DNA of 64,000 nucleotides from Candidatus Harrisonbacteria bacterium (lineage in GTDB: Bacteria; Patescibacteriota; Minisyncoccia; UBA6257; 1-14-0-10-44-23), in the NCBI GenBank assembly GCA_023255625.1, contig JAHFLF010000001.1, positions 30,255 through 94,254 on the forward strand. Reading direction: 5' to 3'. The notes under the pieces are model-generated. The model ran no database searches, was not told the origin of the DNA, and saw only the letters and a program-made list of their open reading frames with translations. Below are positions 19,350 through 43,655 of the stretch, piece by piece. The translations under genes were made by a program, and so were the position numbers. How positions within the stretch are numbered: the first letter of the stretch is position 1; every line of letters begins with the position of its first letter.

Positions 19350-19384
19350 ATTCTCTATTTACCTATTCGTACGAATAAGACAAT
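19350..19384 (-). promoter_or_regulatory. Conserved 35-bp inter-paralog spacer containing the palindrome ATTCGTACGAAT (a variant of the TATTCG..CGAATA operator core)
   Basis: Identical 35-mer attctctatttacctattcgtacgaataagacaat at 19350..19384 and 36811..36845, each directly upstream of a paralog ATG. Confidence 0.5.
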
Positions 19385-19389
19385 AAGCA

Positions 19390-21081: not shown

Positions 21082-21123
21082 GTCTTTATACTACAACCTA
21101 CTCACTACAAACTACAACCTATC

Positions 21124-22827
21124 CTACACCACCTCTTTTTGGTAACACGACTCGCAATAAATAATCTCGGGCCGGTCGGGAGCATACGCCGTCTGGAATG
21201 CGGCGTTACATTTTGCACAATTCCTATCCCACAACTTTGGCGGGTTGAGCCGTGACAATCGTTCCATGTGCCGACAGTCTGGGCACAAACGCGGAATCGG
21301 AAACTCAAATCGACGAAGCAGGGCAAGTTCGGCCGGAATCATTTTGAACGGCTTGCTACATTTCGCACAGCCCAAAACTTCTTGCAAAATAGAATCCTGC
21401 AAATCGCGAATGCTGTCCGGTAGTTTTTCAGGTGGAAGAGTTACTTTATGCTGACTCGGGACCGGCTCACGCCACCGCCAACCTTTCTTCAGAATCTCTT
21501 CCTTCGTCAAAGGAAAATATTGCTGGGCCTGCGTCTCGTTATACGCCCACGGACTCAAGTCATACGGTAAAAATTCTCCGTACTTCCACACGCGGCCTGA
21601 CGAATCAACATACGGCCGATCATTCATGCTCTGAATAATTTCCGCGCGCATCTTTTTATACTCCTCCGGCGAATACTGTTTATTCAAAATGCGATACTCT
21701 TTGCCCTTTAGATTGATGCAGCCAAAATTATGCTTACACCGCAAGTTATACATGCAATATTCCATGTCTAATGTATCGCCCTGGCAGGCACAATTGCAGA
21801 ATCTGACCATACTCGTGCCCTCTCCGGCAGAAACACTGTCAACAACAAGCTCAATTCCGTTACCCCACTCCGTGACATCATAAATGTCTTTCGCCGGACC
21901 CATCGTAAGAAACTGACAGTAACGCGCATCCTCAATCCCCTTCGTCTGGTAGCAATTAATCGCATTCTTAGATTGGAATACATAATCTCCTGTCGCGTTC
22001 GCATTCATGAGGGCGTGCATATACTTGCGTGGATATTCGAGCCAAAAAGCACGTGCCTGCTCTCGGGCCCTCATAAGGCCAGAGTAAGTATTAATCTTGA
22101 ATTCCTTCAATTTGGCTACATATTCTTCCTTCGTATACGACTCATTGAAAATATGATACTGCTTGTTGCGCAAATTAACGCAACCATAACAATCACTGCA
22201 ATCCGTGCAAGATTTCAAAAAATATGAATCTCTACAATTACTGCTGTCTTCAGAAAAAAATAATCTAAATGACTTCCCGCTGCAGATATTTTCATAACAA
22301 AGCTCGCTTTCACTAAGCATTAAAGAATCCATGGAATCTTTATTGCGCACCACCACGGTAGAATAATGCACATTCTCATTGAAATCCGCATTAAAAATAA
22401 GGTAGCAATTTTTTAGACTACCTGCGTAATTAACATATTCGCTATTTACTAGGGTTGTATAATCGTGAATCATTGCAGAGTAAGGAGCTTTTTGGTGGAG
22501 CTCCATCATCTGCTCAAAAAAGTTACGTTTGGGGTCATAGTCGAGATAGAACGCCCCATCATCCCATTTATCTGAATACCAGCAATGACTACAGTAAACG
22601 ACCATTTTCGTATCGGGTGCATGAATAGAGACAACCTCTTTCTTGCAAAGATCGCATGATCTTTTATACAAGGTTCGTTCTTGCCGAAACATAATTCGCC
22701 GTTGAAAACGACACTCGGGACAAAATGTCGGCGGCGGCACCTGCATCTTTTCGTAAAATCCAAAATCCTCTGGTTCAACATTGAACTGATTTTTACAATT
22801 TTGACAGTTGCGAGTTTCGACATCCAT
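21124..22827 (-). CDS. Cys-rich multi-zinc-ribbon family protein (567 aa)
   Basis: ORF track. The start is directly preceded by an operator-like half-site and the stop of the ArsR-family gene. Confidence 0.85.
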   Translation of the reverse strand: MDVETRNCQNCKNQFNVEPEDFGFYEKMQVPPPTFCPECRFQRRIMFRQERTLYKRSCDLCKKEVVSIHAPDTKMVVYCSHCWYSDKWDDGAFYLDYDPKRNFFEQMMELHQKAPYSAMIHDYTTLVNSEYVNYAGSLKNCYLIFNADFNENVHYSTVVVRNKDSMDSLMLSESELCYENICSGKSFRLFFSEDSSNCRDSYFLKSCTDCSDCYGCVNLRNKQYHIFNESYTKEEYVAKLKEFKINTYSGLMRAREQARAFWLEYPRKYMHALMNANATGDYVFQSKNAINCYQTKGIEDARYCQFLTMGPAKDIYDVTEWGNGIELVVDSVSAGEGTSMVRFCNCACQGDTLDMEYCMYNLRCKHNFGCINLKGKEYRILNKQYSPEEYKKMRAEIIQSMNDRPYVDSSGRVWKYGEFLPYDLSPWAYNETQAQQYFPLTKEEILKKGWRWREPVPSQHKVTLPPEKLPDSIRDLQDSILQEVLGCAKCSKPFKMIPAELALLRRFEFPIPRLCPDCRHMERLSRLNPPKLWDRNCAKCNAAFQTAYAPDRPEIIYCESCYQKEVV

Positions 22828-27777: not shown

Positions 27778-29622
27778 TTATCTCTGCGGAGACCGTTGCG
27801 GCGGTTGTCTCTGGCCTCCCCCGCCACCCGAAGGCCGATAGCCACCATCCGGCCTTCGCTGCCCGCCGCCCTGCCGCCCTGATTGCGGAAACGGAGGTCT
27901 TTGCTGTTGCGCTTGAGGCCGAGGCGGCTGGTTGTTTTGCTGCGCCGGGCGCGGTGTTTCTTGGCTACGAACTGGTGCTGGAGGGCGCGAGGGGCGGGGC
28001 GGTTCTTTTGTCTCTTCAAATTCAATACCCATTCCAGCCAGAACATCCTGCGCGCGGGCCTGCACTTCGGCTTTTGGCTGTTTAATAATTTTCGGCGCTT
28101 TAATATCGCCCTTCTTAACTTTTTCCAGACAATCCGAGCAATACACTGGACGATTTGGATTCGGCTTAAACGGCGTTTTGGCACTTTTACCGCAGACAGA
28201 ACAGACCGACATAAAGAGCTCATCCCCCTGCTTATTAATACCAACCATATCCGGACTCTGCTGCGAGGCCTCCTCTGGTGTCTCCGCCAGTGAACTGCTC
28301 CAGCGGGTGATCTCTTGCTCAACTTTCTCCCGAGATTGCGTATACATTCGACGCGAGTGCTCAACTATTACCTCCTCGCCCGGCGCATCCACATTTGATT
28401 TGAACGGCATCAAAGTATTCGCCGAAAACGGACGAGAGTTTGTGCCCGAGACCATCAGCCGAACATAAAAATTATAGTTTGGTAGATTAACAATGTCTGG
28501 AATCATAAATTCCGGCTCTAGTTCCGGCTCGAGAAATTCAGCGTCAGAGGCACCGACGCGGAAAATAATCATTGTGCCGCAGTTACCAAAAACAGCATCG
28601 CGAACTTTGGTCGACATATCACCGGAGACCAACTGGCCGATATATTGATGAGCAATCGTCAAATTTAAACGATATTTACGCGCTTCAGAGAGCACGCCGG
28701 CAAAAGAGTCGGTCGCAAAATTTTGAAACTCGTCGACATAAAGAAAAAAATCCTTGCGCTCATGTTCCGGAATACGCACCCGTTCCATGGCGGCCAGCTG
28801 AATCTTCGTGATGAGCATTGCGCCGAGCAGCGCAGAATTATCCTCACCGATGCGCCCCTTCGAAACATTGACCAGGAAAATCTTCCGCTCATTCATCATT
28901 TTGAAAATATCAATCGTGCTGCGCGTCTGGCCAACGGTATTACGGACTAGACCGGTTGATAAAAACTGACCAACTTTGTTTTGAATTGGCGCGATGGCCT
29001 CGCTGCGGAACTTATCCTGCCACTCCTCATATTCACTGATCCAAAAAGCCCGCACGACCGGATCTTTGACATTCGCAATAATCTTTTGGCGATAATCTTT
29101 GTCAACTAATAGGCGCGGAATACCCAGCAAGGTCGTCCCCGGCGTCTCCAGGAGCGCCAAGACGGCATTATTCATAATATATTCCATTCTGGCCGACCAG
29201 ACATTGCTCCAAATTTTGGTAAAAATACCCATTAGACCGGAGGCCACCAGGTGCTTATATTTCGGATCTGGCAATTCGAGCACATTAAAACCCATCGGAA
29301 AATCAACATCGGCCGGGTTAAAATACACGACATCGTTCAGCCGCTCCTTGGGAATCATTTTTAAAATTCCCTCGACTAACTCTCCATGCGGGTCAACTAC
29401 ACAAAGACCGTCCCCGTTCATAACATCCTGCGAAATTATATTGTGCAGCATTGAAGACTTGCCTGTGCCGGTTTTACCAATCACATACATATGCTGCCGC
29501 CGGTCTTTGCGGGCAATGCCAAAAAGCCGATCTTCACCGCGAAAGTTCGTTTTACCAAAATAAACAACATCGCTCCCGGCGGCGTGGCCCTCTGCTCCGC
29601 CTCTTTGAATTGTTTCTGCCAT
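27778..29622 (-). CDS. FtsK/HerA/T4SS-coupling-protein (TraD/VirD4)-like P-loop ATPase with C-terminal CxxC-x17-CxxC zinc ribbon and RGG/Q-rich tail
   Basis: Walker A RRQHMYVIGKTGTGKSSML, then VVDPHGE, Walker B FFLYVDEFQNF, and LTIAHQYIGQL. No N-terminal TM helices. The C-terminus CSVCGK..RPVYCSDCLEKV is followed by QQRPPFPQSGRQGGGQRRPDGGYRPSGGGGG. Confidence 0.65.
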   Translation of the reverse strand: MAETIQRGGAEGHAAGSDVVYFGKTNFRGEDRLFGIARKDRRQHMYVIGKTGTGKSSMLHNIISQDVMNGDGLCVVDPHGELVEGILKMIPKERLNDVVYFNPADVDFPMGFNVLELPDPKYKHLVASGLMGIFTKIWSNVWSARMEYIMNNAVLALLETPGTTLLGIPRLLVDKDYRQKIIANVKDPVVRAFWISEYEEWQDKFRSEAIAPIQNKVGQFLSTGLVRNTVGQTRSTIDIFKMMNERKIFLVNVSKGRIGEDNSALLGAMLITKIQLAAMERVRIPEHERKDFFLYVDEFQNFATDSFAGVLSEARKYRLNLTIAHQYIGQLVSGDMSTKVRDAVFGNCGTMIIFRVGASDAEFLEPELEPEFMIPDIVNLPNYNFYVRLMVSGTNSRPFSANTLMPFKSNVDAPGEEVIVEHSRRMYTQSREKVEQEITRWSSSLAETPEEASQQSPDMVGINKQGDELFMSVCSVCGKSAKTPFKPNPNRPVYCSDCLEKVKKGDIKAPKIIKQPKAEVQARAQDVLAGMGIEFEETKEPPRPSRPPAPVRSQETPRPAQQNNQPPRPQAQQQRPPFPQSGRQGGGQRRPDGGYRPSGGGGGQRQPPQRSPQR

Positions 29623-29633
29623 GCACCAGTTGG

Positions 29634-29680
29634 TTAGTTGGTTAGCTAGTTAGTTGGTTGTTGGTTAGCCGACAGTTGGT
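29634..29680 (-). repeat. 5'-UTR repeat CTAACCAAC..CCAACTAACTAGCTAACCAAC directly upstream of the ATPase 27778..29622 start
   Basis: The same 21-mer core occurs in sense orientation directly upstream of recR (60428..60470) and at 46750..46790. Confidence 0.5.
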
Positions 29681-29738
29681 CAGTAGAGATGCTTGCTTAT
29701 TTTACCGCCTAACCGGTTAACTGTCTAACTTGCCATAA

Positions 29739-31403
29739 TCAACTTATATTCTGTTGATAACAAGGAGTGCAAGAGATCTTCTTGAAGCCAAGTTCCGGGT
29801 CATAATAATGCTCAATTTCTTTTTTGCAATAATAACAGATACCGTGCTGTGGCATGAACATCAGGCACATAGGGCGGAAGCGTTCGAATGTGCGTTGGTC
29901 AAAATGCTTCTGGGGAAGCGGAATGCCGTGCTGGCGGTAGAATGCGAGTTCATGTGGAGCGATATTGTAACTCAATTTACTTTCAACACAGATGAGCCGT
30001 TGTTTAGTAATTTCATCTTTAACATCGTCAATCAAATCCGGCAACTTATCGCTCGCAATCGCATTTTCATAGCTCGGAATAGGAGTCTCTTCCCAGCGCG
30101 CCCCCATCGCCTCTGCCTCCTTCTTGCCCATATGCGGGAAGCTCCAGCGGGCTAAAGACATGTTAAACGGGCCATATGCCATCTCAAACGGAAAAAACTT
30201 CCCCCACTCTCCCCGTTTCACCATATCCTGCTTGATCCGCTCTCTAAGTTTTTCATACTCCTCCTTCGTGTACTGTTTATTTAAAATGCAGTGTTTCTTT
30301 TTCCGTAGGCCGACACTACCAAAACAATCTTGGCACTCTTCGCAGGAATCCAGATACATGCTGTACCGGCAATTGGTCACATACATCACGCACGAATTCC
30401 CATAACTCCACTGATCGAGCAACGTCCTCGTTGATCTTTCAGTGAGCCCGCAGGAAACGACTTCGATAGAATCTTTTGCCTCGTATCCCCTGATGAGTTG
30501 ACGGCAATTTTCAGATTTTTCTACGAAACTGCAATTAGTGCAATTCTTATTTTCGGTCATAAAATTACCCCGACACGCGGTAACCTGCGTGTTAAGATTC
30601 TCCCGATGCACCGCTTCGTCCCGCAAATGTCCCCAAAACTCTTCCTTAAGTTTCTGTACTGCTGAAAATGACCGTAGATTATATTGCTTCAGTTTTTCAA
30701 AGTATTCTTCTTTGGTGTATTGCTGATTTAAAATACAATAGCGTTTATTGCGGAGATTCCAACTCATGAAGCAGTTATTGCAATTCCTGCAATCGTACAA
30801 AAACGCGCTTTCAACAGAATCGTGGGTATTAAAACAATATTTCAAGCGCCATCCTTTATAGCAATATAAACAGTCGTACGACTGCTCAATATCAAAACAG
30901 TAGGCGCAATCAATACATTCTTTCGCGGTGCTGATCCGATATCCGTAACTGACGGTTTCGTTACGGTAACCAGATCGGCACAGGTACGAATCCTTGGACT
31001 CCCACCAATCATCGGTCCATTCGCAGGCAGTATTCAGGCGGCCAAGTTGGTGCGGATGAGGCACTTTATGCTGAAGCTCGGTAAGTTGCTCTAAAAATGG
31101 CCGGTTTGGATCGTAATCCTGTCCGTACGAAAGTGGATCCCACGCGTCTGAAAGGAATTCTTCATGTTCATAGATCGGAAATTTGACGCTTTCCGGCAGC
31201 ATCGTAATTATCTGCTTTCCGCTGAGCGCTGATTTGGTTACGCGAAACCTCCCTAATATCCAAAATCCCAAGAGGCGCTTCCAGGTGCAGCCCATGCAGT
31301 CCGCGGTCGGCGGAATCCCCGCCTGCTCATACATTACCAAATCTTCCGTAGTCAACGTGAATAGTTGCGTACAATTGGCACAGAATTTATTTTGACTACT
31401 CAT
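29739..31403 (-). CDS. Cys-rich multi-zinc-ribbon family protein (554 aa, divergent member)
   Basis: ORF track. NKRYCILNQQYTKEEYFEKL and KKKHCILNKQYTKEEYEKL modules. The start overlaps the pepA stop by 8 nt. Confidence 0.8.
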   Translation of the reverse strand: MSSQNKFCANCTQLFTLTTEDLVMYEQAGIPPTADCMGCTWKRLLGFWILGRFRVTKSALSGKQIITMLPESVKFPIYEHEEFLSDAWDPLSYGQDYDPNRPFLEQLTELQHKVPHPHQLGRLNTACEWTDDWWESKDSYLCRSGYRNETVSYGYRISTAKECIDCAYCFDIEQSYDCLYCYKGWRLKYCFNTHDSVESAFLYDCRNCNNCFMSWNLRNKRYCILNQQYTKEEYFEKLKQYNLRSFSAVQKLKEEFWGHLRDEAVHRENLNTQVTACRGNFMTENKNCTNCSFVEKSENCRQLIRGYEAKDSIEVVSCGLTERSTRTLLDQWSYGNSCVMYVTNCRYSMYLDSCEECQDCFGSVGLRKKKHCILNKQYTKEEYEKLRERIKQDMVKRGEWGKFFPFEMAYGPFNMSLARWSFPHMGKKEAEAMGARWEETPIPSYENAIASDKLPDLIDDVKDEITKQRLICVESKLSYNIAPHELAFYRQHGIPLPQKHFDQRTFERFRPMCLMFMPQHGICYYCKKEIEHYYDPELGFKKISCTPCYQQNIS

Positions 31404-33018
31404 TTTTTAGAGTCTTTTTGACTTCGCTCCACTGCATGGCCAGCTCAACAAACAATCGTACGCCGTACCCGGCGGCGCCTTTTGCCAACTGCTCCTCTTC
31501 GGGGTTGGTTGTCATGCGCGGTGCCATATCGATGTGGGCAAAATTTGCGCCTTTGGCGAAGTGAGACAAAAATGCAGCAGCCGACGATGCACCGCCATAT
31601 CGCGAATTGTTTTTGTGAGTATTGGTTACATCCGCCAGATTACCCTCAACATCTTTTTCAAAATCTTCATTGAGCGGTAAGGGCCAGAGCAGATCGCCGG
31701 AATTATTGCCAATCTCTTCAAGCGCATCTTGCAATTTTTTATTTCCTTTGACGAAGAGGCCGGAAAAACGAGTACCGAGCGCAACCACGGCCGCACCGGT
31801 TAAAGTAGCAATTGTTACGATCAATTCCGGCTTCTTTGTTTTTGCATACTCAATCGCATCAGCTAAAATCACGCGCCCCTCGGCATCAGTATTGCCAATC
31901 TCAATCGTCTTGCCACCATACGCCTTGATAATGTCTCCTTGCCGATAACTCAAACCGCTGGGCATATTTTCCACCGCCGGAATCAGCCCAAGAACATTCA
32001 CTGGCAATTTTAGTTTTGCGATTGCACTAATTGCATAAATAACGGCCGCGCCACCACTCATGTCCATATGCATATCCGCCATATGATCGCCCGGCTTTAA
32101 GTTAAGACCGCCGGAATCAAAAGTTACACCCTTTCCTACTAGTGCGATCGGATGCTCACCCTTTTTGCCCCCACTGTACTCCATGATGACCAGACGCGGC
32201 GGACTGACCGATCCGGCACCAACTGCCAAAATAGCATTCATCCCTTCCTGTTTGAGCCGCTTCTCGTCAAATATAGTGACCTTGATGCTCTTATTTTCAT
32301 TCGCGACAGTCCGCGCCGCCTCGGCCATACCCTCGGGCTTTAAATCACTCGGCGGATAATTTGCAAGCGTGCGGCACTCATTTATACTTGCGGCCATAAT
32401 CTCGCCCACCTTAACCATATCGGCGCACTTCTTTGCATCGTGATATGTAGCCAAAATAACAGTTTCAACTCTTTTCCAACCCTCCGGCGGAACCTGCTTA
32501 AACTGCTCACTAAAATCGTAATGAGCAAAAAGAGAATTACCAGAAATCAGCGCGCACATTCGTTCGGCGGAAATCTGCTGACTCTCGAAATCATCAGCAT
32601 AAATTGCTACTACCTTGAAACCCTCCTGCTTGGCAGTTCGTATAAAACGCCGCACGAGTAGCGCTAACTTCTTCTCATCAAAATCCGTTTCTAAAGCTAT
32701 AAAAACAAAAGCTGGCGCATCATTTAAGCGCAACAGCTTGCTTTCACCCGGTTTACGAGTCCGCGACGCGAGATAATTTTTAATCAATCGTTTATCGGCA
32801 ACGCTGAAATTCGCAAACATCTCACCAAGCATTGCTGGTTTACCCGCCTTTCCGATGGCGGGCTTTTCTTTTACATCCAACCAAACCGGCAAAAATAATA
32901 AATCAACCCTCTTTAATGACTGCTTCGTCGGCTTAGTGTCAATGTGGAATTTCATAGAGAGTAATCGCGAACAACGCGAATATAGGTAATAATGCAAATG
33001 ATACAAAGGAAAAGACAA
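31396..33018 (-). CDS. pepA: leucyl aminopeptidase (M17)
   Basis: NTDAEGRVILADAIEYA and the M17 catalytic region. Confidence 0.8.
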   Translation of the reverse strand: MSFPLYHLHYYLYSRCSRLLSMKFHIDTKPTKQSLKRVDLLFLPVWLDVKEKPAIGKAGKPAMLGEMFANFSVADKRLIKNYLASRTRKPGESKLLRLNDAPAFVFIALETDFDEKKLALLVRRFIRTAKQEGFKVVAIYADDFESQQISAERMCALISGNSLFAHYDFSEQFKQVPPEGWKRVETVILATYHDAKKCADMVKVGEIMAASINECRTLANYPPSDLKPEGMAEAARTVANENKSIKVTIFDEKRLKQEGMNAILAVGAGSVSPPRLVIMEYSGGKKGEHPIALVGKGVTFDSGGLNLKPGDHMADMHMDMSGGAAVIYAISAIAKLKLPVNVLGLIPAVENMPSGLSYRQGDIIKAYGGKTIEIGNTDAEGRVILADAIEYAKTKKPELIVTIATLTGAAVVALGTRFSGLFVKGNKKLQDALEEIGNNSGDLLWPLPLNEDFEKDVEGNLADVTNTHKNNSRYGGASSAAAFLSHFAKGANFAHIDMAPRMTTNPEEEQLAKGAAGYGVRLFVELAMQWSEVKKTLKNE

Positions 33019-33056
33019 AGAGTCCAGCCGTCGGCGCGATGGTGTATAATATCTAG

Positions 33057-33950
33057 ATGAAAACTACGGTTACTATCATCGGCGCCGGCAAAATTGGCCA
33101 GGCAATCGCCGCTATCTTAAAGAAAAAGCCAGATGTAGAAATAGCGCTCTGGGATACTGATCTGACGAAAGTCCAGAATCAGCAGCCACTTGAAAAAATC
33201 ATTCCTACCGCCGATATTATTTTTACCTGTACCCCGTTGGCGGCAACGCGGGCCGTACTCGTTGCGATCAAAAATTATCTTCCAAAAAAAGCCATCATTG
33301 TCTCGCCCTGCAAAGGAGTCGAGCAGGAAACTGGTCTCCGGATAGATGAAGTTATCGTTGATGTAGTCCCGGGCCAATGCTACGCTCTTCTGCTCGGCTC
33401 GATGCTGGCCGACGAGATGATGAGTGGTCAACCAGGAGTCGCGGCTCTCGCATGTTCAGATGAAACAGCAACTCGTTTGATCAAAGAACTTTTCAGCGGC
33501 ACGCTTTTATATCTAAAACCAACGGCTGACATCGTTGGCGCAGCTTACGCCGGCATACTCAAAAACATCTACGCAATTCTCTTTGGAGTTATCCACGGGC
33601 TGAATTATGGCGACAACGCAAAAGGATTTATCGCGGCAAAAATTATTAGCGAAATGCAGATGCTGATTTGCCTGCTCGGCGGACACGAGGACACCTGTCT
33701 TTCAGCGCCAGGCGCCGGAGACTTTTTAACTACCGGCTACAGCCCGCTCTCCCGCAACCGCCAAGTTGGAGAGGCCATCATTACCGGAAAACCATATCCG
33801 CAAACCTCTGAAGGACTGCTAGCCCTGCCAATGATTGTCAAAAAAATGGGAGCAAAAATGTCTAAATATCCCATCTTGACCGCTACTAACGCCATCGTAC
33901 TAGAACACGCAGACCCGCGCACTATCATCGAAAACCTGCTTGATCTATGA
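33057..33950 (+). CDS. gpsA: NAD(P)H-dependent glycerol-3-phosphate dehydrogenase (short)
   Basis: N-terminal Rossmann IIGAGKIGQAIAA and C-terminal GAAYAGILKNIYAILFGVIHGL resembling the GpsA GGAVKNVIAIGAG region. Confidence 0.55.
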   Translation: MKTTVTIIGAGKIGQAIAAILKKKPDVEIALWDTDLTKVQNQQPLEKIIPTADIIFTCTPLAATRAVLVAIKNYLPKKAIIVSPCKGVEQETGLRIDEVIVDVVPGQCYALLLGSMLADEMMSGQPGVAALACSDETATRLIKELFSGTLLYLKPTADIVGAAYAGILKNIYAILFGVIHGLNYGDNAKGFIAAKIISEMQMLICLLGGHEDTCLSAPGAGDFLTTGYSPLSRNRQVGEAIITGKPYPQTSEGLLALPMIVKKMGAKMSKYPILTATNAIVLEHADPRTIIENLLDL

Positions 33951-35110
33951 ATCAAAAACCGGCTGTTTTAATTCTTGATGTAGGCACAACAACAATTAAA
34001 GCATTTGTGTTTGATCAGGAACTCCATGTCCTTGGCCAAGCAAAACTAGAGCCAAAAAAAACTCGCCCGCAATCTGGCTTCGTTGAACAAGATCCGCTGG
34101 AGTTGCTCGCGCTAGCAAAGCAGGTGCTCGTACAAGCGGTGGCTATAGCAAAAATTGCGCCCGCCGAAATTTTATCTTTCGGAATCACAAATCAGAGGGA
34201 AACTGTTATCGCTTGGGATAGAGCCACCGGCGAGCCACTTTACCCGGCAATAGTCTGGGAAGATACGCGCACAGCAAAAACATGCGCTGCGTTAGAGCGC
34301 TTTACCGGCTTCGTCCGCGAAAAAACCGGCCTGCCAATTGATCCATATTTTTCTGCTACTAAAGTCAGCTGGTTATTACAACAACCGCCAGTTATCCATG
34401 CGCTGCGGGAGAAAACTCTTTGCGTCGGGACAGTTGACAGTTGGATTCTTTGGAACCTTTCAGCCGAGCATCTCCATGCCACTGATTACACCAACGCGAG
34501 CCGGACGCTTCTTTTCAATATAAAAACATTAAGCTGGGACAGCGAATTATTAAAACTCTTTGCTGTCCCGGCCGAAATTCTGCCGAAAGCGCAGCCGTCC
34601 GCCGCGAACTTCGGTTCGCTGAATACTGATATTGTCGGTGCACTAATTCCGATTCGTGCGCTTTGCGGAGATCAGCAGGCCAGCCAGTACGCCGCTGGCG
34701 TAAATGTCGGTGCAACAAAAGTAACACTAGGTACGGGAATTTTTATTTCTCAAATTATCGGAAGTAATTTCCAAATTCGACCTCCTTTTTTTACGACACT
34801 TGTGCCAAATGAAAAACAGCCCTGGTACGCGCTTGAGCAGAAAATAAATGAGTCTGGCTCGAGAATTCAGGAACTACTTGATAAAAAAATGGATCTGGCT
34901 CCGCTGCTCAAAGAGTTTTCAGAGGATGTAAATATATATTTGAAAAAACTACCGCGCCAACCGGCCGAACTTGTAATTGACGGCGGTATAACTCAAGCGC
35001 CGGCGCTCGCGGATATTCTCGCGGAGACAACTGGCTTGCCGGTGCGCCGCCAAATAATTCCAGATGGCACACCGCTTGGTATGGCAAAATTATTGTTTAG
35101 CCGCGATTAA
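33947..35110 (+). CDS. glpK: glycerol kinase-like FGGY carbohydrate kinase (truncated C-terminal domain)
   Basis: LILDVGTTTIKAFVFD...ITNQRETVIAWDRATGEPLYPAIVWEDTRT...DPYFSATKVSWLL are GlpK motifs. 387 aa against the typical ~500 aa. Confidence 0.65.
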   Translation: MNQKPAVLILDVGTTTIKAFVFDQELHVLGQAKLEPKKTRPQSGFVEQDPLELLALAKQVLVQAVAIAKIAPAEILSFGITNQRETVIAWDRATGEPLYPAIVWEDTRTAKTCAALERFTGFVREKTGLPIDPYFSATKVSWLLQQPPVIHALREKTLCVGTVDSWILWNLSAEHLHATDYTNASRTLLFNIKTLSWDSELLKLFAVPAEILPKAQPSAANFGSLNTDIVGALIPIRALCGDQQASQYAAGVNVGATKVTLGTGIFISQIIGSNFQIRPPFFTTLVPNEKQPWYALEQKINESGSRIQELLDKKMDLAPLLKEFSEDVNIYLKKLPRQPAELVIDGGITQAPALADILAETTGLPVRRQIIPDGTPLGMAKLLFSRD

Positions 35111-36810
35111 ACAACCTCGGCGTTGTAGCAAGTTTCGCAATAGACTATGTCGGGCCGGTCGGGCGCAAAACTAGTAATAAACTTATTGGCGCAGCCCGGC
35201 TTCATGCACTGGCGATCATAAAATATGGCTTTGTTGCGTTGAATAATTCGGGCGGAGTGGCGGCAATCTATGCATGTCCGTGGAAGAGGAATTTCGAACT
35301 GGCGCAAGAATTGTAACTCCGGACCAATAATGCGATACGCTTTTTTACACTCTGCACACTGAATGATCTGCTTCACGATATCATCCTGCGCATTACCAAT
35401 AGAATCCGGAAGCTGCGCAGCAGTCATCGTCGTTTGATACTCTGTTGGATTTGGTTCTTGCCACCGCGCACCAAATGCGAGCGCCTCCTCTTTAGAAAGC
35501 TTAAAATGCTCGGGGCTGATACTTTGATCGTACGCAAATGGAGAAAATTCCGGCGGAAAAAATTCACCGTATGCGTATGTCCTACCCTGTTTATCTACAT
35601 GCGGCATCGTATTCATCTGCTCAATAATTTTTTTGCGCAACGCAAAATAATCTTCTTTAGAGTATTGCTTATTCAAAATACAGTACTGCTTGTTTCTGAC
35701 TGACACGCAGCCAAATAAATTCATGGCAGTCCCGCCGCAGTGCATGCAATATTCAAAGTCTGAACCTCCGTCCCAACACTCCCAGCAGAACTTGAGGCGG
35801 GTTGCTCCCCATCCAGAGGTTGCAGATTCATAGACAAGCTCCGTGGCGCCAGTAACCGTAACATCCATAGAATCAGTAGTCGGCAGTGCCTGCGAATACT
35901 GGATATAGCGCAGATCCTGGCCCTCGGCAATCACATACCCATGGTGTACATTTTTTGAGAAGCTCACAAAATCGCCGCTGACATTTGCGTTCAACATTCC
36001 TTGCAAATTCTTGATAGGAAATGTAAGCCAAAATTCTTTTGCTTTTTGCCACGCTACTGTAAGCCCGCTCCAGGTATCAAGTTTGAGCGCTTCAAGCCGT
36101 TTAAAGTACTCCTCCTTAGTAAGCTGCTCATTATTAAAGCAATAACTCTTATTGCGCAAATTCACGCAGCCGAAACAGTCGGTGCAACCGCGACACTCCC
36201 GAGAAAACCAAATTGAAGCTGACTCGGCACAGAGCGAAGAGAAAAATGCCTTATTGCAAGAAAGCACCCAGAAACAGCCATAACAACTTTCTGACTTTTT
36301 CAGATTAGAATTATCATACGAATTTTTGCATTCATCAATCCCGTTGCCGTATCCGCAGTCTTCGTCATGATTTGCGTTGAAGACTAAATAACAATTTTTA
36401 AGCCCGTCGGCGTTACCAGAGTAATCGCTGTTAACCATATTGATAGCGGCCGAGCGATAACGCGGCACCTTTTGATTGAGCTCCTGCAGTTGCGCCAAAA
36501 ACGGCCGACTTGGATCAAAATCCTGGCCATAACTCATCGGGTCCCATCCTGTCTGCCCAAACCACTCCTTATCATCATAAATAGGAAACCCGCAATCAGC
36601 TGGATAGATACCAACCGTGTCTCTGCCGGTAGTCGCCTCCTTAATCCTAAACAACTTTCGCTCATTGCGAAACAACATTCGCCTGCGCATCCGGCACTGC
36701 GCACACCATGTAGGCGGCGGCACATCAATCTTTTTGTAAAAATCAAAATCCGCCTCTTCGATCACAAAATCTTTTTTACAGTTTTGGCAGTATCTAGTTT
36801 CCGGTCTCAT
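35107..36810 (-). CDS. Cys-rich multi-zinc-ribbon family protein (567 aa)
   Basis: ORF track; family motifs (..IVYCETCYNAEVV). Confidence 0.85.
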   Translation of the reverse strand: MRPETRYCQNCKKDFVIEEADFDFYKKIDVPPPTWCAQCRMRRRMLFRNERKLFRIKEATTGRDTVGIYPADCGFPIYDDKEWFGQTGWDPMSYGQDFDPSRPFLAQLQELNQKVPRYRSAAINMVNSDYSGNADGLKNCYLVFNANHDEDCGYGNGIDECKNSYDNSNLKKSESCYGCFWVLSCNKAFFSSLCAESASIWFSRECRGCTDCFGCVNLRNKSYCFNNEQLTKEEYFKRLEALKLDTWSGLTVAWQKAKEFWLTFPIKNLQGMLNANVSGDFVSFSKNVHHGYVIAEGQDLRYIQYSQALPTTDSMDVTVTGATELVYESATSGWGATRLKFCWECWDGGSDFEYCMHCGGTAMNLFGCVSVRNKQYCILNKQYSKEDYFALRKKIIEQMNTMPHVDKQGRTYAYGEFFPPEFSPFAYDQSISPEHFKLSKEEALAFGARWQEPNPTEYQTTMTAAQLPDSIGNAQDDIVKQIIQCAECKKAYRIIGPELQFLRQFEIPLPRTCIDCRHSARIIQRNKAIFYDRQCMKPGCANKFITSFAPDRPDIVYCETCYNAEVV

Positions 36811-36845
36811 ATTCTCTATTTACCTATTCGTACGAATAAGACAAT
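36811..36845 (-). promoter_or_regulatory. Second copy of the 35-bp spacer with the ATTCGTACGAAT palindrome
   Basis: Identical to 19350..19384. Confidence 0.5.
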
Positions 36846-36847
36846 GG

Positions 36848-38608
36848 CTATGAAACTTCTTGCTGATAACACTGCTCGCAATACACAATTTCGGGCCGGT
36901 CAGGGGCAAAAGGAGTCTCAAATACTGAAGGACAGGGCTTCTCGCCATGAAAATGCATTACGGCGTTTTGATACCCTACCTTCTGAGACTGCCGATTGCA
37001 ATCGCACACACAAGACCAGAGCTGGTGAGGATTCTTCGTAGCAATTCGTGCCTTATGGCGACAATAAAAACATTGTCGAGGAAGCGGAATTTTTAAGCGA
37101 CGATAGAATTTTAGCTCCGCCGGGACAACACGATAGTTTCTTTTACAATCAATGCAGGCAAAAATTTCCTTTGTGATTTCATCTTGTACATCCGCGATAC
37201 CGTCGGGAATCTCCTCGAGTGGCATCGTCTCTTTACCAACCGTCATCTGCAGCTGATCCTGCCACCGCAAACCCTTTGCATCAACCTCATTTCCTGAAAG
37301 TGGAAAATAATCCTGAGCAACACTTTCATTATACGCAAAATACGAAAGTTCTGATGGCAGAAATTCGCCGAAAGCATACGCGATCCCATTTTTATCCAGA
37401 TATGGATTCGCCTGCATATCTTCCTTTATTTTTGTAACTAACGATTCGTATTCCTCTTTAGAATACTGCTTATTCAAAATACAATACTGGGCCTTTTTGA
37501 GCCCAACGCAGCCAAATAAGTCTTTCGAGGAATGACATGCGTCCACGTAAGCAACATTTTCATTGCGCCACGAAAAAATCGCGAACATACTGCGATAGGA
37601 AAGGTCGGGCGTTACGCCTTCGTAGCACTGGTCAAGTTTTCCTCCAACGCTTAGATCATAGGAACCCCGGGGCGTATCTGCATTTTCTACCCATTTGCAA
37701 TCCTCTCCGCGTTGAACGTTAAAACACTGCTTTGAATTTTTACAATTCATTAAGCTATCGCCGGTACAATTCACGCAGTTTCTCTGCGTAGCAAATCTTC
37801 GAGGCGTGCTCAAAAAAATATCTTTAAATTCCTTTTTTGCTTTTTCTACACCGGTGTAGGTATCAAGTCGATAGTCTCGAAGGATCTTTTCGTACTCTTC
37901 TTTTGTATATTGTTTATTTTTAAAGCAATACCGTTTGTGACGTAGACCAACAGACATAAAACAATCAGCGCAGTCTCGACAGTCATAGCAAAAAGAACAA
38001 TCCGATAAGGAAACAGAATAATACACGTACCGACACTGAAAGCACTTTTCGGTGGCAACTGTTTCATATGTAAACTGACAATCCCCCATGCTATTTACTG
38101 CATCAACAATATCTTTGCCATTGATAAGATACGAGCTATAGAGGCACTCTTCGAGTTCCCAGGCGATAAAAACCATATAGCAGTTTTTACTGGAGGCAAA
38201 ATCCTGAGTATATTCACAGTTTACGCTTGTGATGCCGTCATCGTTGGCGGTAGTCCACATCGGCACGCGACGCTGGAGTTCCGCAAACTGCTCTAAGAAT
38301 GTTCGAGTAGGATCATACGTCTGCTCGTAGCTTTTTGGATCCCACTTGTCACTCCACCAACATTTAGGACAATACACAGTATTGATAGGTCCGTTTGGCG
38401 CGTACAGCGAAATAACCGACTTGTGGCACAGAGCACATGTTCGAGAATATAACATCGTATCGTTGCGCCACGAAAGACGGCGCTGCTTGCGACACTCCGG
38501 GCAAAACGTCGGCGGAGGTACCTCTAACTTTTTGTAGAATGCCAAATCTTCGTCTTCGACAATAAACTCTTTTTTGCAATTCTGACATGCGCGGATTTCC
38601 GAATTCAT
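36848..38608 (-). CDS. Cys-rich multi-zinc-ribbon family protein (586 aa)
   Basis: ORF track. The start abuts the stop of the RhuM-Fic/Doc gene. Confidence 0.85.
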   Translation of the reverse strand: MNSEIRACQNCKKEFIVEDEDLAFYKKLEVPPPTFCPECRKQRRLSWRNDTMLYSRTCALCHKSVISLYAPNGPINTVYCPKCWWSDKWDPKSYEQTYDPTRTFLEQFAELQRRVPMWTTANDDGITSVNCEYTQDFASSKNCYMVFIAWELEECLYSSYLINGKDIVDAVNSMGDCQFTYETVATEKCFQCRYVYYSVSLSDCSFCYDCRDCADCFMSVGLRHKRYCFKNKQYTKEEYEKILRDYRLDTYTGVEKAKKEFKDIFLSTPRRFATQRNCVNCTGDSLMNCKNSKQCFNVQRGEDCKWVENADTPRGSYDLSVGGKLDQCYEGVTPDLSYRSMFAIFSWRNENVAYVDACHSSKDLFGCVGLKKAQYCILNKQYSKEEYESLVTKIKEDMQANPYLDKNGIAYAFGEFLPSELSYFAYNESVAQDYFPLSGNEVDAKGLRWQDQLQMTVGKETMPLEEIPDGIADVQDEITKEIFACIDCKRNYRVVPAELKFYRRLKIPLPRQCFYCRHKARIATKNPHQLWSCVCDCNRQSQKVGYQNAVMHFHGEKPCPSVFETPFAPDRPEIVYCEQCYQQEVS

Positions 38609-38609
38609 G

Positions 38610-39611
38610 CTAGTTGGCGAGCAGATTAAGAATGAGTCTAATCATCACCTCTTTTTCTTTCGGATTACTCTCGGCGATAAGTAAAGCAAGCGCGACGAGC
38701 GCGTTGTCATTGATTTTCTTTTCGCCGCTCTTTTTAAGCAATTTATTATTGCGGCTCAAAAACAAGATAAACAAAAATGAGCCGATGCGTTTATTGCCAT
38801 CAGAGAAGGAATGATCTTTGATCACAAAGTAGAGTAAATGCGCAGCTTTTTCTTCAATACTTGGATACAGATGAATACCGCCGAAAGACTGGTAAAGTCC
38901 GGCGATAATACCCTGAAATGATTTATCGCGCTCACTGCCAAACAGGTCGCTCGCCTCGCCTTTGTTCATCAGAGCAATTTTTAGCTCGTCAATCGCACTA
39001 CGGGCATCTTCATAAAGTAGTAAACGACCGCCAGCTTTCTTAAGTATCGGGGTTTCAAGTCGCTGCTCATCGTATTTCTGCAACAACAACCATGCGTTAG
39101 CGTAACCGCTAATCACTTCAAGCAAACCGCTTGTCTCATCACTTGAAAGCATTTTCTGTTTTGCCCGTTCCAGCAAATCCAGCGTCTTTCTAAATTCAAT
39201 AAGCTGTTTGCCTTGCAGCTGTTTGAGACGTTGCTCATTTACCGTCACACCTTTCAAGATATGATCCTTGAGAACATTCGTTGCCCATCGACGAAACTCA
39301 ATGCCGCGTCGGGTATTTGTTCGGTAACCAACTGCGAGGATGATATCAAGATTATAAAAACTGACTGGTTTATCAGAATTTGGAATGTGCATTTTTTGCA
39401 CATTGCTTTTTGTATCAACCTCACCATCCTTGAGAATGTTGCGAATATGTTTGGTTACCACTGTCCGGTCAATACCGAATAAATCAGTAATTTGACCCTG
39501 GGTCAGCCACACCGTCTCGCCACTAAAACGCACTTCAACCGAAGCGTTACGCTTTTTATCTTGATAGATAATTATCTCACCTCTATCCTGCTGCTTTTTC
39601 GTCTTTGCCAT
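38610..39611 (-). CDS. RhuM-family virulence protein with C-terminal Fic/Doc domain
   Basis: N-terminal EIIIYQDKKRNASVEVRFSGETVWLTQGQITDLFG is RhuM-like. The C-terminal HSFSDGNKRIGSF is the Doc/Fic HxFx(D/E)GNKR motif. Confidence 0.7.
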   Translation of the reverse strand: MAKTKKQQDRGEIIIYQDKKRNASVEVRFSGETVWLTQGQITDLFGIDRTVVTKHIRNILKDGEVDTKSNVQKMHIPNSDKPVSFYNLDIILAVGYRTNTRRGIEFRRWATNVLKDHILKGVTVNEQRLKQLQGKQLIEFRKTLDLLERAKQKMLSSDETSGLLEVISGYANAWLLLQKYDEQRLETPILKKAGGRLLLYEDARSAIDELKIALMNKGEASDLFGSERDKSFQGIIAGLYQSFGGIHLYPSIEEKAAHLLYFVIKDHSFSDGNKRIGSFLFILFLSRNNKLLKKSGEKKINDNALVALALLIAESNPKEKEVMIRLILNLLAN

Positions 39612-39650
39612 GTATCTATACTACAACCTACCACCTACTCCCTACAACCT

Positions 39651-41177
39651 CTATATAAGCGGCTCCGGATTATCTATCGCGGGCTGGACGAGCTTGCTGC
39701 CGTCCGGATTTTTACCGCCGGTGATGATGGCCTTTTCTTGTGCAGAACGAATAATTGTTGACTCCTCTTCCTGAATCAATTTTTTAGCATCGCCGACGGG
39801 GATGGTGTACTTGCGGCGGCTCGCCTCAATAATCCGGTCTTTGTAACTCGGATGATTAGGCGGCATTATTTTGAGCGTGGCCGCTGAAAATGCATCGTAG
39901 GTCTCCCCGTCAATCGTCATCTTAATGTAAAATTCTCGCTTACCAAGGTTAATCATGTCTTTAACCTTAAACATCGGAGCAAACTCATCCTCCAAAATAA
40001 CGGCGTCGGCACCACCCACGCGGAAACTGACAATCGTACCGGTGTTACCAAGCACGGCAGCAAGAATCTTAGGCAGCAGCTGGCCCATGTACTGGTGCGC
40101 GATAATCAGGTTGATGCCGTATTTACGCGCCTCGGATAAAATGTTTTCAAAGGTCTCGGTAACAATGTTTTGAAACTCGTCAATGTAGAGATAAAAATCA
40201 AGGCGGTCTTTTTCGGGCATACGCGCGCGGGCCATACCCGCCTGCTTAATCTTGGTGAGAAACATTGCGCCAAAGAATGAAGAATTTTCTTCGCCCAGCC
40301 GACCCTTAGATAAATTGATGAGCACAATCTTCTGCTCGTTCATTAACTTTTCCAAATCAATCTTGTTGGTCTTCTGGCCAAAAATGTTGCGTAGGAGCGG
40401 GTCAGACAAAAACTGGCCGAGCTTATTAACCAGCGGGATAATCGCGTCGGTATCAAACTTTTCGCTCCAATCCGCAAATTCAATAGCCCAGAAGCGTTTG
40501 ACCATGTCGTCCTCAATGTACTCAATCACTTTTTGGCGGTAGTTACGGTCGGTCAGCATTGAGATCATACCGCGCATGGTGGCGTGCGGATAATCTAAAA
40601 GTGCCAGCGTGGTAAATCGGAATACGTGCTCAAGTCGCGGCGTCCAGTTTGCGCCAAACTGCTTTTCTAAGACCTCAATAAGTCCTTGGGTCAGCTGGTG
40701 CTTAAAGTCCATGTCAATGTTGGCGAGCGGGTTAAACGACGACGGGAATTGTGCGTCGCCCGGGTCAATAAGACACACATCCTCAATACGCCGTTCAGGA
40801 ATGGCATGCAAAATTTCTTCAACCACATCGCCGTGCGGATCCATCAGACAAAATCCCTTATTAAATTCAATATCCTGCCGGATGAGCAGCTCCAATAATT
40901 TTGTTTTACCGACGCCGCTTTTACCAATGACATACATGTGCCGCTGGCGGTCGGCGCGCTTAATACCAAACACAAATTTTTTCTCTTCAAGCGCGGCAAC
41001 ATAGTTGGTGCGGCCAAAAAAATTAATATCTTTGGGGTCAACTTTGCCGAGCATCGGTAGGTCTGGCGGAGGCGGCGCGTACTTAACAATCTGCACACGC
41101 GAAGAAACCGGCGGAAGAGGTTGCGCCGGAGCAGCAGATTGAGTTGGTTGTGGTTTTATGTTGTCAGCCATAAACAA
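39651..41177 (-). CDS. FtsK/HerA/TraD-VirD4-like P-loop ATPase, paralog of the 27778..29622 gene (508 aa)
   Basis: RQRHMYVIGKSGVGKTKLL, MDPHGD, FYLYIDEFQNI, LIIAHQYMGQL. The motif order and spacing match the other ATPase. Confidence 0.65.
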   Translation of the reverse strand: MFMADNIKPQPTQSAAPAQPLPPVSSRVQIVKYAPPPPDLPMLGKVDPKDINFFGRTNYVAALEEKKFVFGIKRADRQRHMYVIGKSGVGKTKLLELLIRQDIEFNKGFCLMDPHGDVVEEILHAIPERRIEDVCLIDPGDAQFPSSFNPLANIDMDFKHQLTQGLIEVLEKQFGANWTPRLEHVFRFTTLALLDYPHATMRGMISMLTDRNYRQKVIEYIEDDMVKRFWAIEFADWSEKFDTDAIIPLVNKLGQFLSDPLLRNIFGQKTNKIDLEKLMNEQKIVLINLSKGRLGEENSSFFGAMFLTKIKQAGMARARMPEKDRLDFYLYIDEFQNIVTETFENILSEARKYGINLIIAHQYMGQLLPKILAAVLGNTGTIVSFRVGGADAVILEDEFAPMFKVKDMINLGKREFYIKMTIDGETYDAFSAATLKIMPPNHPSYKDRIIEASRRKYTIPVGDAKKLIQEEESTIIRSAQEKAIITGGKNPDGSKLVQPAIDNPEPLI

Positions 41178-42060: not shown

Positions 42061-42132
42061 TCGAATGCAAACAAATATGCCAATGAATGTCTATTCGAAT
42101 ATTAGTCTTTATTCGCATGTTCGTGAATACTG
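42061..42132 (-). promoter_or_regulatory. Second copy of the conserved leader, upstream of membrane protein 41272..42060
   Basis: See 41178..41280. Confidence 0.45.
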
Positions 42133-43645: not shown

Positions 43646-43655
43646 TATCTCCCGG

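Follow-up and report, generated by a model that had tools for sequence, protein, structure and literature searches.

A VirD4-like motor ATPase, its separate membrane partner and a neighbouring cysteine-rich protein family in a Patescibacteria genome region

What is the role of two ATPases of the coupling-protein type in a genome region that shows no genes of a type IV secretion system (T4SS), and do the large cysteine-rich (Cys-rich) proteins encoded beside them take part in their function? These questions are raised by a stretch of 64,000 nucleotides (the window) from a Candidatus Harrisonbacteria genome (contig JAHFLF010000001.1 of assembly GCA_023255625.1), a member of the Patescibacteria, a group with tiny genomes that accounts for much of bacterial diversity and lives mostly on other cells. 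The two ATPases, here named ATP1 (27778..29622) and ATP2 (39651..41177), had been pointed out in an earlier reading of the DNA made without database searches (the sequence-only reading) as paralogous soluble P-loop proteins that are coupled to Cys-rich genes. The analysis described below indicates that a two-part ATPase of the FtsK-HerA superfamily exists throughout the Patescibacteria, that ATP1 and ATP2 are duplicates of its motor subunit, and that its membrane anchor is a separate protein, mem481, with a predicted fold like that of the N-terminal domain of VirB4.

The relationship of the two ATPases and their motifs were as the sequence-only reading had described them. ATP1 and ATP2 are 43% identical over 446 aa (BLASTP, E 4e-135), and their translations contain the Walker A sequences GKTGTGKS and GKSGVGKT, the sequences DPHGE and DPHGD, the Walker B sequences FFLYVDEFQN and FYLYIDEFQN and the sensors IAHQYIGQL and IAHQYMGQL, respectively. 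A transmembrane (TM) helix was detected in neither of them, the best 19-residue Kyte-Doolittle mean being 1.21 for ATP1 and 1.42 for ATP2 (threshold 1.6). In Pfam, PF10412 (TrwB_AAD_bind) scored 45.4 bits for ATP1 and 29.4 bits for ATP2 (cut-off 20.5) with an alignment that runs unbroken over aa 39-357, PF02534 (T4SS-DNA_transf) scored 27.6 and 32.8 bits (cut-off 20.1), and TraG-D_C was above its cut-off for both. PF01935 (DUF87) reached 28.6 and 31 bits (cut-off 23.2), which for ATP1 is below the models of the type IV coupling proteins (T4CPs), and covered mainly the Walker A region. The top sequence match in the PDB was TrwB (1e9r; E 1.8e-6 with a profile) and the top NCBIfam models were VirD4-like (CD1115) and TraD, with the models of VirB4, TrbE and CedD much lower: CedD matched weakly (E 4e-5), and TIGR00929 (VirB4) gave E 0.0023 and 16.2 bits for ATP2, against a cut-off of 643, and no match for ATP1. 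Neither ATPase matched CagE_TrbE_VirB or a HAS barrel in Pfam, nor an FtsK_SpoIIIE motor or gamma domain at E<=0.01 in Pfam and NCBIfam, and NurA was absent among the neighbours in the loci examined. A PADLOC scan returned mad8 (E 1e-14) and weak matches to HerA. By this ranking in Pfam, NCBIfam and the PDB, both proteins are placed on the coupling-protein (TraD/VirD4/TrwB) branch of the FtsK-HerA superfamily, in agreement with the TraD/VirD4 type assigned to them earlier.

With the T4CPs (TrwB of R388, VirD4, TraD, DotL) the two ATPases share the layout of Walker A, Walker B and sensor in the P-loop domain. However, they miss several features that define coupling proteins. The N-terminal TM domain is lacking and the membrane segment sits on the separate mem481. 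Relaxase and T4SS genes are absent near them, and their scores of 44-54 bits in NCBIfam are 5- to 10-fold below the curated cut-offs of 250-650 (NF045973, 47.6/53.8 bits against 250; TIGR03743, 44.5/46 bits against 366). A further difference is that ATP1 ends in a zinc finger and a basic tail. Between Parcubacteria lineages that are named as different candidate phyla, its orthologs with this fusion show 63-89% identity, a much higher conservation, which is unusual for coupling proteins. The close homologs of ATP1 all came from metagenome-assembled genomes of the Parcubacteria/Paceibacteria type.

A C-terminal zinc ribbon had been claimed for the ATPases, and this held for one of the two. Residues 468-502 of ATP1 read ELFMSVCSVCGKSAKTPFKPNPNRPVYCSDCLEKV and pass both PF23477 (zf_Tbcl_2; 46.3 bits, cut-off 27) and TIGR04272 (CxxC-x17-CxxC; 49.2 bits, cut-off 36). 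The CxxC-x17-CxxC domain binds zinc in small proteins of Methanosarcina mazei (PMC12704099). The finger is absent from ATP2, so that only ATP1 carries the ribbon. Behind it follows a low-complexity tail of 109 aa with 21 P, 18 Q, 14 R and 13 G and an isoelectric point (pI) of 11.5, much like the RGG/Q-rich tail noted before; it opens with the motif LAxLGIEF, which is kept in the ATP1 orthologs.

The surroundings of the ATPases in other genomes were studied in 80 loci around ATPase homologs (the ATPase-anchored set), the reading frames of which were scanned with the proteins of the window. In 58 of these loci the gene immediately preceding the ATPase was a homolog of mem481, and in 47 a homolog of the sigma-like gene sig350, the conserved first gene of the module, lay upstream of mem481. 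Upstream of the module secD and secF were each present in 35 loci and secA in 12, while downstream of the ATPase pgk and a DHH protein gene, mnmA or efp were seen; dnaK/dnaJ were frequent nearby. The CxxC-x17-CxxC finger is present on the ATPase that stands alone behind mem481 in about 60 of the 80 loci, mostly with no Cys-rich gene in the vicinity. The finger-bearing ATPase behind mem481 is near-universal in Patescibacteria, in the array secDF / sigma4-HARE-HTH / partner / ATPase. The presence of the finger in so many single ATPases implies that ATP1 represents the ancestral form, and its occurrence mostly away from Cys-rich genes implies that the ATPase is independent of the Cys-rich family. 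ATP2-type genes, defined as finger-less and scoring higher against ATP2, occurred in 18 of the 80 loci, in Paceibacteria-type lineages, and none of them has a finger. In two of these loci (L001 and L004; loci are referred to by L numbers) the order is secD-secF-sig350-mem481-tm262-ATP2-ATP1-efp without a gene between the ATPases, which looks like a plain tandem duplication. The ancestral motor had the C-terminal CxxC-x17-CxxC finger and the basic disordered tail that ATP1 shows, and was duplicated in Paceibacteria-type lineages; ATP2 is the later, derived duplicate without a finger. The region 27778-44708 of the window is one expanded copy of the conserved module. In one clade (L009, L011, L013-L016, L018 and L019) both ATPases lie between dnaK and dnaJ in the order dnaK-ATP1-(CYS)-ATP2-dnaJ, where CYS stands for Cys-rich genes, which may also be missing between the two.

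The sequence-only reading had left the motor without a partner and had overlooked three genes upstream of ATP2, those of mem481 (42133-43455), of the small membrane protein tm262 and of the sigma-like protein. An AlphaFold (AF2) model of mem481 (predicted local distance difference test (pLDDT) 83.8) begins with an N-terminal helix of 47 residues and continues in alpha/beta domains. The 13 best Foldseek matches of this model in the PDB were all TrwK/VirB4 of R388 (E 1.3e-4 to 1.6e-3, probability 0.98-1.0, TM-scores 0.25-0.34), and no match was found when the mem481 profile was compared with PDB sequences. PF26449.1 is present in the precomputed annotation of P0241, which is 100% identical to mem481, and of most mem481 homologs; our literature search found no paper on DUF8128/PF26449. 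Proteins in which both halves are joined were found in phages and in Patescibacteria. The profile phrog_5156 (824 positions) spans both, with ATP1 at 402-817 (E 2.7e-60) and mem481 at 79-209. In gp156 of Bacillus phage G (825 aa) the mem481 profile aligned with residues 30-169 (hhalign 94%, E 1.4e-7), and the C-terminal half matches ATP1. A Patescibacteria protein of 866 aa (L040:120-2717) aligned with mem481 over 341 columns (hhalign 98.6%, E 7.6e-16) and contains TrwB_AAD_bind at 443-795. Some Patescibacteria carry such a second gene (834-866 aa) beside the split module, namely the fused L040:120-2717 and L067:11191-13692, which has the length and the ATPase matches of the former and an N-terminal half that lay outside the mem481 comparison. 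On the strength of the span of phrog_5156 and of the fusions in gp156 and L040, mem481 and the ATPase are taken to form a single machine in two parts. Phage G gp156 and the 'VirD4 component-like protein' of SPO1-like phages (phrog_5156), in which both halves are fused (825-906 aa), differ from this machine in that they are only 24-28% identical, have no zinc finger and are not accompanied by a Cys-rich family. In phage G (L161, 88999-96105) gp156 is preceded by a second ATPase, gp155 (Pfam P-loop_TraG / AAA_10), which is annotated as VirB-like, so that phage G encodes two ATPases of the T4SS type.

With mem481 folded as modelled, the mem481/ATPase pair would resemble VirB4/TrwK in layout, with an N-terminal membrane-associated domain followed by an FtsK-HerA ATPase, but its motor is VirD4-like: the ATPase half is nearer to VirD4, the VirB4 models score only 16-20 bits, and the pair is sited outside the virB4 cluster. 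Free-standing proteins that resemble the VirB4 N-terminal domain are known as TrsD from Gram-positive T4SSs and are abundant in Patescibacteria (PMC12102498); mem481 may be one of these. The gene between mem481 and ATP2, tm262, encodes 2-3 hydrophobic segments, a His-rich linker and a C-terminal AHRLRNELAH (an Rx4H, HEPN-like motif), for which the HEPN support is a weak match to HEPN_Swt1 (E 0.055). It takes the same position in L001, L002, L004, L024 and L121 and is an optional member of the module. The RhuM-Fic/DOC gene, which is separated by 40 bp from ATP2 and by 2 bp from the Cys-rich genes, has the same position in L140:4473-5459 and is probably a passenger.

No relaxase, VirB4, VirB6 or pilin was matched in a Pfam scan of the window that covered the open reading frames (ORFs) of >=150 aa, nearly all the credible ones (lepA, 8251-10284, was excluded and named from its translation alone). 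Relaxase and VirB genes were likewise absent among the conserved neighbour families of the 80 loci, which are secD/secF, sigma4-HARE-HTH, dnaK/dnaJ, pgk, mnmA and efp. In agreement with the sequence-only reading, the context is not that of a conjugative T4SS. Together with the neighbouring Cys-rich arrays that share the finger of the motor, described next, the duplicated ATPases suggest a motor system at the membrane that has yet to be described, and not a machine for conjugation.

The Cys-rich family is represented in the window by nine paralogs of 554-593 aa with 30-39 Cys each (5.4-6.9%). Their genes form four clusters and not the two that had been placed near the ATPases, although both adjacencies are real. 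More than 6,894 homologs were found, none of which has a Pfam domain and which are almost always named "hypothetical protein" in their sources. An exhaustive profile search gave 2,245 clusters at 50% identity (E<=1e-30) of a uniform 550-600 aa. Full-length Cys-rich proteins had no match in Pfam, NCBIfam, PHROG or PADLOC, and the family profile had none among PDB sequences. The AF2 model of paralog 35107-36810 (pLDDT 89.2, predicted TM-score 0.88) starts with a CxxC-x24-CxxC ribbon and a finger-like segment, in which CxxC-x17/18-CxxC is intact in four of the nine paralogs. These are followed by a core of two beta-solenoid blocks, each closing with LRNKxYCIxNxQYSKEEY and a helix, and by a helical linker, a second CxxC-x24-CxxC ribbon and the terminal finger. 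The first solenoid block, the least confident part of the model, has seven conserved Cys including a CxxCxxCxxC run. Foldseek found no match with E<1e-3 in the PDB and BFVD. The weak best structural matches of the core were left-handed beta-helices (LpxD, GlmU, gamma-carbonic anhydrase), but with E >=0.012 and TM <=0.12, no Hexapep match in Pfam and a core that is Cys-rich here, so that the modelled resemblance would be one of general shape only. No TM helix was detected in the Cys-rich proteins, and no N-terminus resembling a signal peptide was seen in the translations. With a pI of 5.9-7.9 overall, they have basic ribbons (pI 8.8-9.5) and acidic solenoids.

The window paralogs are 45-64% identical to a protein from another genome and 34-43% to their best partner within the window; they are ancient and older than the species splits. 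An origin by recent tandem duplication at a hot spot was discarded for this reason. The paralog that adjoins ATP1, 29739-31403, is the most divergent (30-34% identity); its penultimate ribbon is without the Cys ligands and it has no match to PF23477. The public gene call of this paralog is 487 aa long, against 554 aa here.

The likeness of the ATP1 ribbon to the C-terminus of the Cys-rich family, on which the sequence-only reading had built part of its proposal, stood up to profile comparison. For the isolated C-termini of eight of the nine paralogs PF23477 was the top or sole Pfam match, with 14.6-25 bits (E 1.5e-5 to 0.027), which is below the cut-off of 27. A profile of 112 ATPase fingers aligned with the C-terminus of the family with an hhalign probability of 92.6% (E 4.5e-7) and with residues 52-90 of the family with 90.5%, as against 3-4% for the two other ribbons of the family. 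A second set of loci was obtained in a reverse test, a metagenome scan anchored on paralog 5079-6782, which lies farthest from the ATPases in the window. It comprises 80 loci (the Cys-anchored set), many of them short and 45 of >=10 kb, and brings both sets together to 160 loci. When a hidden Markov model (HMM) of the ATPase finger was run over all reading frames of these 160 loci, it matched 88 ATP1-type and 45 Cys-rich proteins and nothing else. The Cys-rich gene 21124-22827 was matched twice, at aa 56-86 and 537-567. The exact x17 spacing was seen in several of the paralogs. The Cys family resembles the TIGR04272/PF23477 proteins in this spacing and in a VPF-P-x3-RP-x-YC-x2-C signature, at sub-threshold scores; whereas the M. 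mazei proteins are small, the finger is here the terminal module of large proteins. These comparisons suggest that the finger is specifically common to the motor ATPase and the Cys-rich family.

Each ATPase gene had been noted to lie within about 1.2 kb of a Cys-rich gene on the same strand. This is the case: Cys-rich gene 29739-31403 ends 116 bp upstream of ATP1, and ATP2 is 1,043 bp from Cys-rich gene 36848-38608 with the Fic/DOC gene between them, all on the minus strand. By our estimate the chance of two such adjacencies within the window is ~0.04, which is weakly surprising. Since there are four Cys clusters in 64 kb, a test from other genomes was needed. In the ATPase-anchored set Cys-rich genes were present in 14 of 80 loci, namely in 11 of the 18 with an ATP2-type gene as compared with 3 of the 62 without one. 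In the Cys-anchored set ATP1 or ATP2 was present in 21 of 80 loci, and in 17 of the 45 loci of >=10 kb. Chance placement in genomes of 0.5-1 Mb predicts 2-4 loci as against these 21 (Poisson P<1e-8, a value that ignores the phylogenetic relatedness of the loci). The ATPases were the commonest neighbour of Cys-rich genes, any other family being found in at most 8 of the 80 Cys-anchored loci. The sequence-only reading had made its proposal depend on the conservation of this neighbourhood in related genomes, and the pairing was found in 35 loci of other genomes, with Cys-rich genes on the strand of the nearest ATPase in a ratio of 120:6. The proposal thus survived the check that had been set for it. 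In these 35 loci, the ATP1 sequences of which form 10 clusters at 80% identity, a Cys-rich reading frame lies <=300 bp from 35 of the 53 ATPase genes.

The adjacency is kept in at least six gene orders: ATP2-CYSn-ATP1, dnaK-ATP1-CYSn-ATP2-dnaJ, mem481-ATP1-CYSn-ATP2-CYSn, mem481-CYS-ATP1-CYSn, mem481-ATP1-ATP2-CYS4 and ATP1-efp-mnmA-CYS2. The Cys-rich genes frequently begin or end only tens of bases from a motor gene, and the Cys lineage that abuts the ATPase changes between genomes. The closest relatives of paralog 5079-6782 are within 55 bp of ATP2 in L082 and L083, and those of paralogs 1257-6782 adjoin ATP1 or ATP2 in L102, L082, L083 and L012. The mnmA-CYS arrangement of 17568-22827 recurs in L102 and L152.

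The conserved same-strand linkage together with the shared finger makes a functional link between the motor and the Cys-rich family likely enough for us to regard the case as evenly balanced. Such a link would make the Cys-rich proteins adaptors or cargo, in either case clients of the motor. They may reach the motor or its ligand via the shared finger, at the same site or ligand as the finger of ATP1 itself, and the finger-less ATP2 would most plausibly accept a finger in trans from them. The assembled hexameric motor would act at the membrane on mem481, where a macromolecule would be translocated or remodelled. This substrate could be a protein, as the Sec/DnaK neighbourhood favours, or a nucleic acid, as favoured by the relatives of the motor, the RG-rich tail and the HTH protein. 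A bolder proposal, which we hold to be unlikely as a whole, is that the mem481/ATPase pair is a hitherto unrecognised, Patescibacteria-wide translocation motor of the membrane, a hybrid that joins a VirD4-like ATPase to a VirB4-like N-domain and whose genes accompany those of SecDF and DnaK/DnaJ and not those of a T4SS. The ~560-aa Cys family, of which Paceibacteria genomes have about ten ancient paralogs each, would then be its dedicated cargo or adaptors, and the whole a new macromolecule-transfer pathway underlying host dependence.

Several observations weigh against a client role of the Cys-rich proteins and against the motor as pictured here. The evidence for the link is gene order and one shared 35-aa domain. 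Six of the nine window paralogs are not adjacent to an ATPase, 59 of the 80 Cys-anchored loci are without an ATPase (though many of these loci are short), and most Patescibacteria have the finger-bearing ATPase without a Cys-rich gene nearby. As the loci are related, one ancient array that was flanked by the duplicated ATPases and reshuffled internally could give much of the signal. Near-neutral and without signal peptide or TM helix, the Cys-rich proteins are unlike classical exported proteins or general nucleic-acid binders. The likeness of mem481 to VirB4 is at the level of the fold only, with low TM-scores and no sequence-level match in the PDB. Finally, a t4cp homologue was reported to be non-essential in S. 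epibionticum (PMC12102498).

Part of this could be accounted for if the linkage were historical only. The motor would then have a housekeeping role of its own, the founding array of an unrelated, ancient Cys family would have lain beside the ATPase when the latter was duplicated, and conserved synteny with rearrangement within the array would account for the adjacency. The finger would be a common small module that each uses independently. Gene order in this region is strongly conserved across Patescibacteria (secDF, sig350, mem481, ATPase, pgk, mnmA, efp, dnaK/J), and neighbourhood alone is therefore weak evidence. The antiquity shown by the paralog identities, the Cys arrays that are also found beside genes for aminoacyl-tRNA synthetases and beside lepA, aspS and murB, and the presence of the ATPase without the Cys family in most lineages would all fit this explanation. 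It is nevertheless somewhat unlikely, given that ATPases are 2.5-fold commoner beside Cys-rich genes than any other family, that the adjacency persisted although gene order took at least six forms and the abutting paralog lineage differed in each, that no third family in the 160 loci has the finger, and that ATP2 and Cys-rich genes co-occur. Rather improbable is a classical coupling function, in which ATP1 and ATP2 would be the missing T4CPs of a T4SS encoded elsewhere, near dnaA, and the Cys-rich proteins effectors recognised by their C-terminal finger, much as Xanthomonas VirD4 recognises effectors by the XVIPCD domain. In favour of this, the Cys family is multicopy beside T4CP-like genes and has a conserved C-terminal module. 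Moreover, Patescibacteria T4SS clusters are without a recognisable coupling protein (PMC12102498; PMC10633639), that of S. epibionticum included (PMC10633639), and of the 5,713 VirD4-like genes counted in 2,918 genomes most are located apart from virB4 (PMC12102498; PMC10633639), only 148 of these T4CP homologues being near it (PMC12102498). However, where the T4SS is essential t4cp is not (PMC12102498). The window and the conserved neighbours contain no T4SS gene, the paralogs are conserved over their full length and have no variable effector domains, and the ATPase is far more conserved than usual for T4CPs that handle effectors. Tightly zinc-folded proteins, as the Cys-rich proteins would be, are also poor secretion substrates.

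The substrate of the motor bears on a further explanation, that the mem481/ATPase pair pumps or remodels DNA or RNA (in uptake, segregation or export), guided by sig350, the finger and the RG-rich tail, with the Cys-rich proteins as zinc-ribbon escorts or as acidic solenoid mimics of DNA. The nearest families of the ATPases, the weak CedD match among them, are DNA translocases, sig350 has two DNA-binding domains, and both the ATP1 tail and the ribbons of the Cys-rich proteins are basic. Against these stand the conserved neighbours, which are protein-export and chaperone genes and include no nuclease, relaxase or recombinase, the rarity of comEC in the vicinity of the ATPase (5 of 80 loci), and Cys-rich proteins that are not basic overall; we consider this explanation very improbable. 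The same count of comEC led to the rejection of a competence locus, which had been considered with comEC at 10 kb from ATP1. Extremely improbable is an anti-phage system or conflict island in which the ATPases would act with the Cys-rich proteins, the Fic/DOC gene and the HEPN-like tm262. The PADLOC match to mad8 with the weak HerA matches, the Fic/DOC gene and Rx4H motif nearby and the existence of phage homologs speak for it, but the Fic gene and tm262 are sporadic and the Cys-rich proteins have no PADLOC match. The ATPase is near-universal, single-copy, 63-89% conserved and in housekeeping synteny, which is contrary to what a defence island shows, and a defence system was rejected as the principal explanation on account of this universality, synteny and conservation.

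Returning to the membrane motor with the Cys-rich proteins as possible clients, what emerges is a known kind of machine in a new form, plus an uncharacterised family associated with it. Orphan VirD4-like genes number thousands in Patescibacteria and have only been said to be maybe "exapted for other functions" (PMC12102498). In a literature search of incomplete coverage we found no description of the split architecture with a VirB4-N-domain-like partner, of the conserved finger, of the secDF / sigma4-HARE-HTH synteny, of the duplication or of the link to the Cys family, nor a paper on a cysteine-rich Parcubacteria paralog family. The orphan gene gains an anatomy, namely a split motor, a membrane partner predicted to be VirB4-N-domain-like and a finger with a basic tail, as well as a fixed place beside Sec and chaperone genes. 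In one major class the duplicated motor flanks arrays of a large, uniform and unannotated family with the same finger. Should the link prove functional, the machine will have been named together with its candidate clients, and the role of the ATPase becomes directly testable.

The features of the window are collected in Table 1.

Table 1. Positions of the motor module, the Cys-rich genes and their neighbours within the 64,000-nucleotide window, given from the highest to the lowest coordinates.
Feature	Position	Strand	Evidence or remark
grpE	54643-55221	minus	
dnaK	52673-54544	minus	
Unnamed 339-aa gene	between dnaK and dnaJ	minus	
dnaJ	50427-51539	minus	
tRNA-Lys	between dnaJ and secD	minus	
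secD	47806-49092	minus	Pfam SecD_SecF_C, SecDF_P1_head (secD/secF pair)
secF	46781-47701	minus	Pfam SecD_SecF_C, SecDF_P1_head (secD/secF pair)
Methyltransferase	45807-46682	plus	Pfam
sig350, sigma-70 region 4 + HARE-HTH	43656-44708	minus	Pfam Sigma70_r4 E 5.5e-15, HARE-HTH E 2.9e-5
mem481, membrane-anchored ATPase partner, 440 aa from Met42	42133-43455	minus	ORF extends to 43578
tm262, small membrane protein	41272-42060	minus	between mem481 and ATP2
ATP2, 508 aa, finger-less	39651-41177	minus	Pfam families as ATP1
RhuM + Fic/DOC gene	38610-39611	minus	Pfam
Cys-rich paralog, 586 aa, 39 Cys	36848-38608	minus	family HMM and alignment; C-terminal PF23477 E 8.2e-4; N-terminal CxxC-x18-CxxC at residue 58
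Cys-rich paralog, 567 aa, structure modelled	35107-36810	minus	
glpK, gpsA	between Cys-rich gene 35107-36810 and leucyl aminopeptidase	plus	
Leucyl aminopeptidase	31396-33018	minus	
Cys-rich paralog, 554 aa	29739-31403	minus	adjoins ATP1
ATP1, VirD4/TrwB-type soluble P-loop ATPase, 614 aa	27778-29622	minus	
CxxC-x17-CxxC zinc finger of ATP1, aa 468-502	28117-28221	minus	PF23477, TIGR04272
Basic P/Q/R/G-rich tail of ATP1, aa 506-614	27781-28107	minus	composition, pI
efp	downstream side of ATP1	plus	
Sugar-nucleotidyltransferase, Nudix gene, flavodoxin-like gene, then mnmA	between efp and Cys-rich genes 17568-22827	minus	
Three tandem Cys-rich paralogs	17568-19349, 19390-21081, 21124-22827	minus	downstream of mnmA
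Split comEC	14957-17463	minus	
aspS, ndk, lepA, murB	between comEC and Cys-rich genes 1257-6782	minus	
Three tandem Cys-rich paralogs	1257-2984, 3195-4862, 5079-6782	minus	far from ATPases here

Promoter and terminator scans of 27-45.5 kb gave 28 terminators as against a shuffled expectation of 24.4, and 35 promoter-like sites as against 23.9 ± 5.9. No clear operon boundary was marked by them in this region and they were left out of the argument. The 116-bp leader of ATP1 is filled by a C/A-rich repeat, (CTAACCAAC)n (29625-29665), which is also present at 46752-46785; an obvious Shine-Dalgarno sequence was not seen in this leader. The stretch 44843-46682 is G+C-rich (0.53) and has long overlapping ORFs on both strands, of which only 45807-46682 (plus) has a Pfam match, with none for 45002-45697 and 45716-46261 on the minus strand. 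Two genes with an overlap of 28 nt make up the split ComEC, one for the Competence domain (15829-17463) and one for the metallo-beta-lactamase (14957-15856). Amid housekeeping genes, 11410-12063 (minus) is a toxin gene of the AbiEii nucleotidyltransferase type, and 57703-60417 (plus) encodes a DnaB replicative helicase with an intein and a LAGLIDADG homing-endonuclease domain (Pfam DnaB_C, Intein_splicing, LAGLIDADG_3). The sequence AACCAACTAAC (<=1 mismatch) occurs in 7 copies in the window, against 0.95 expected, and two of these are just upstream of secF.

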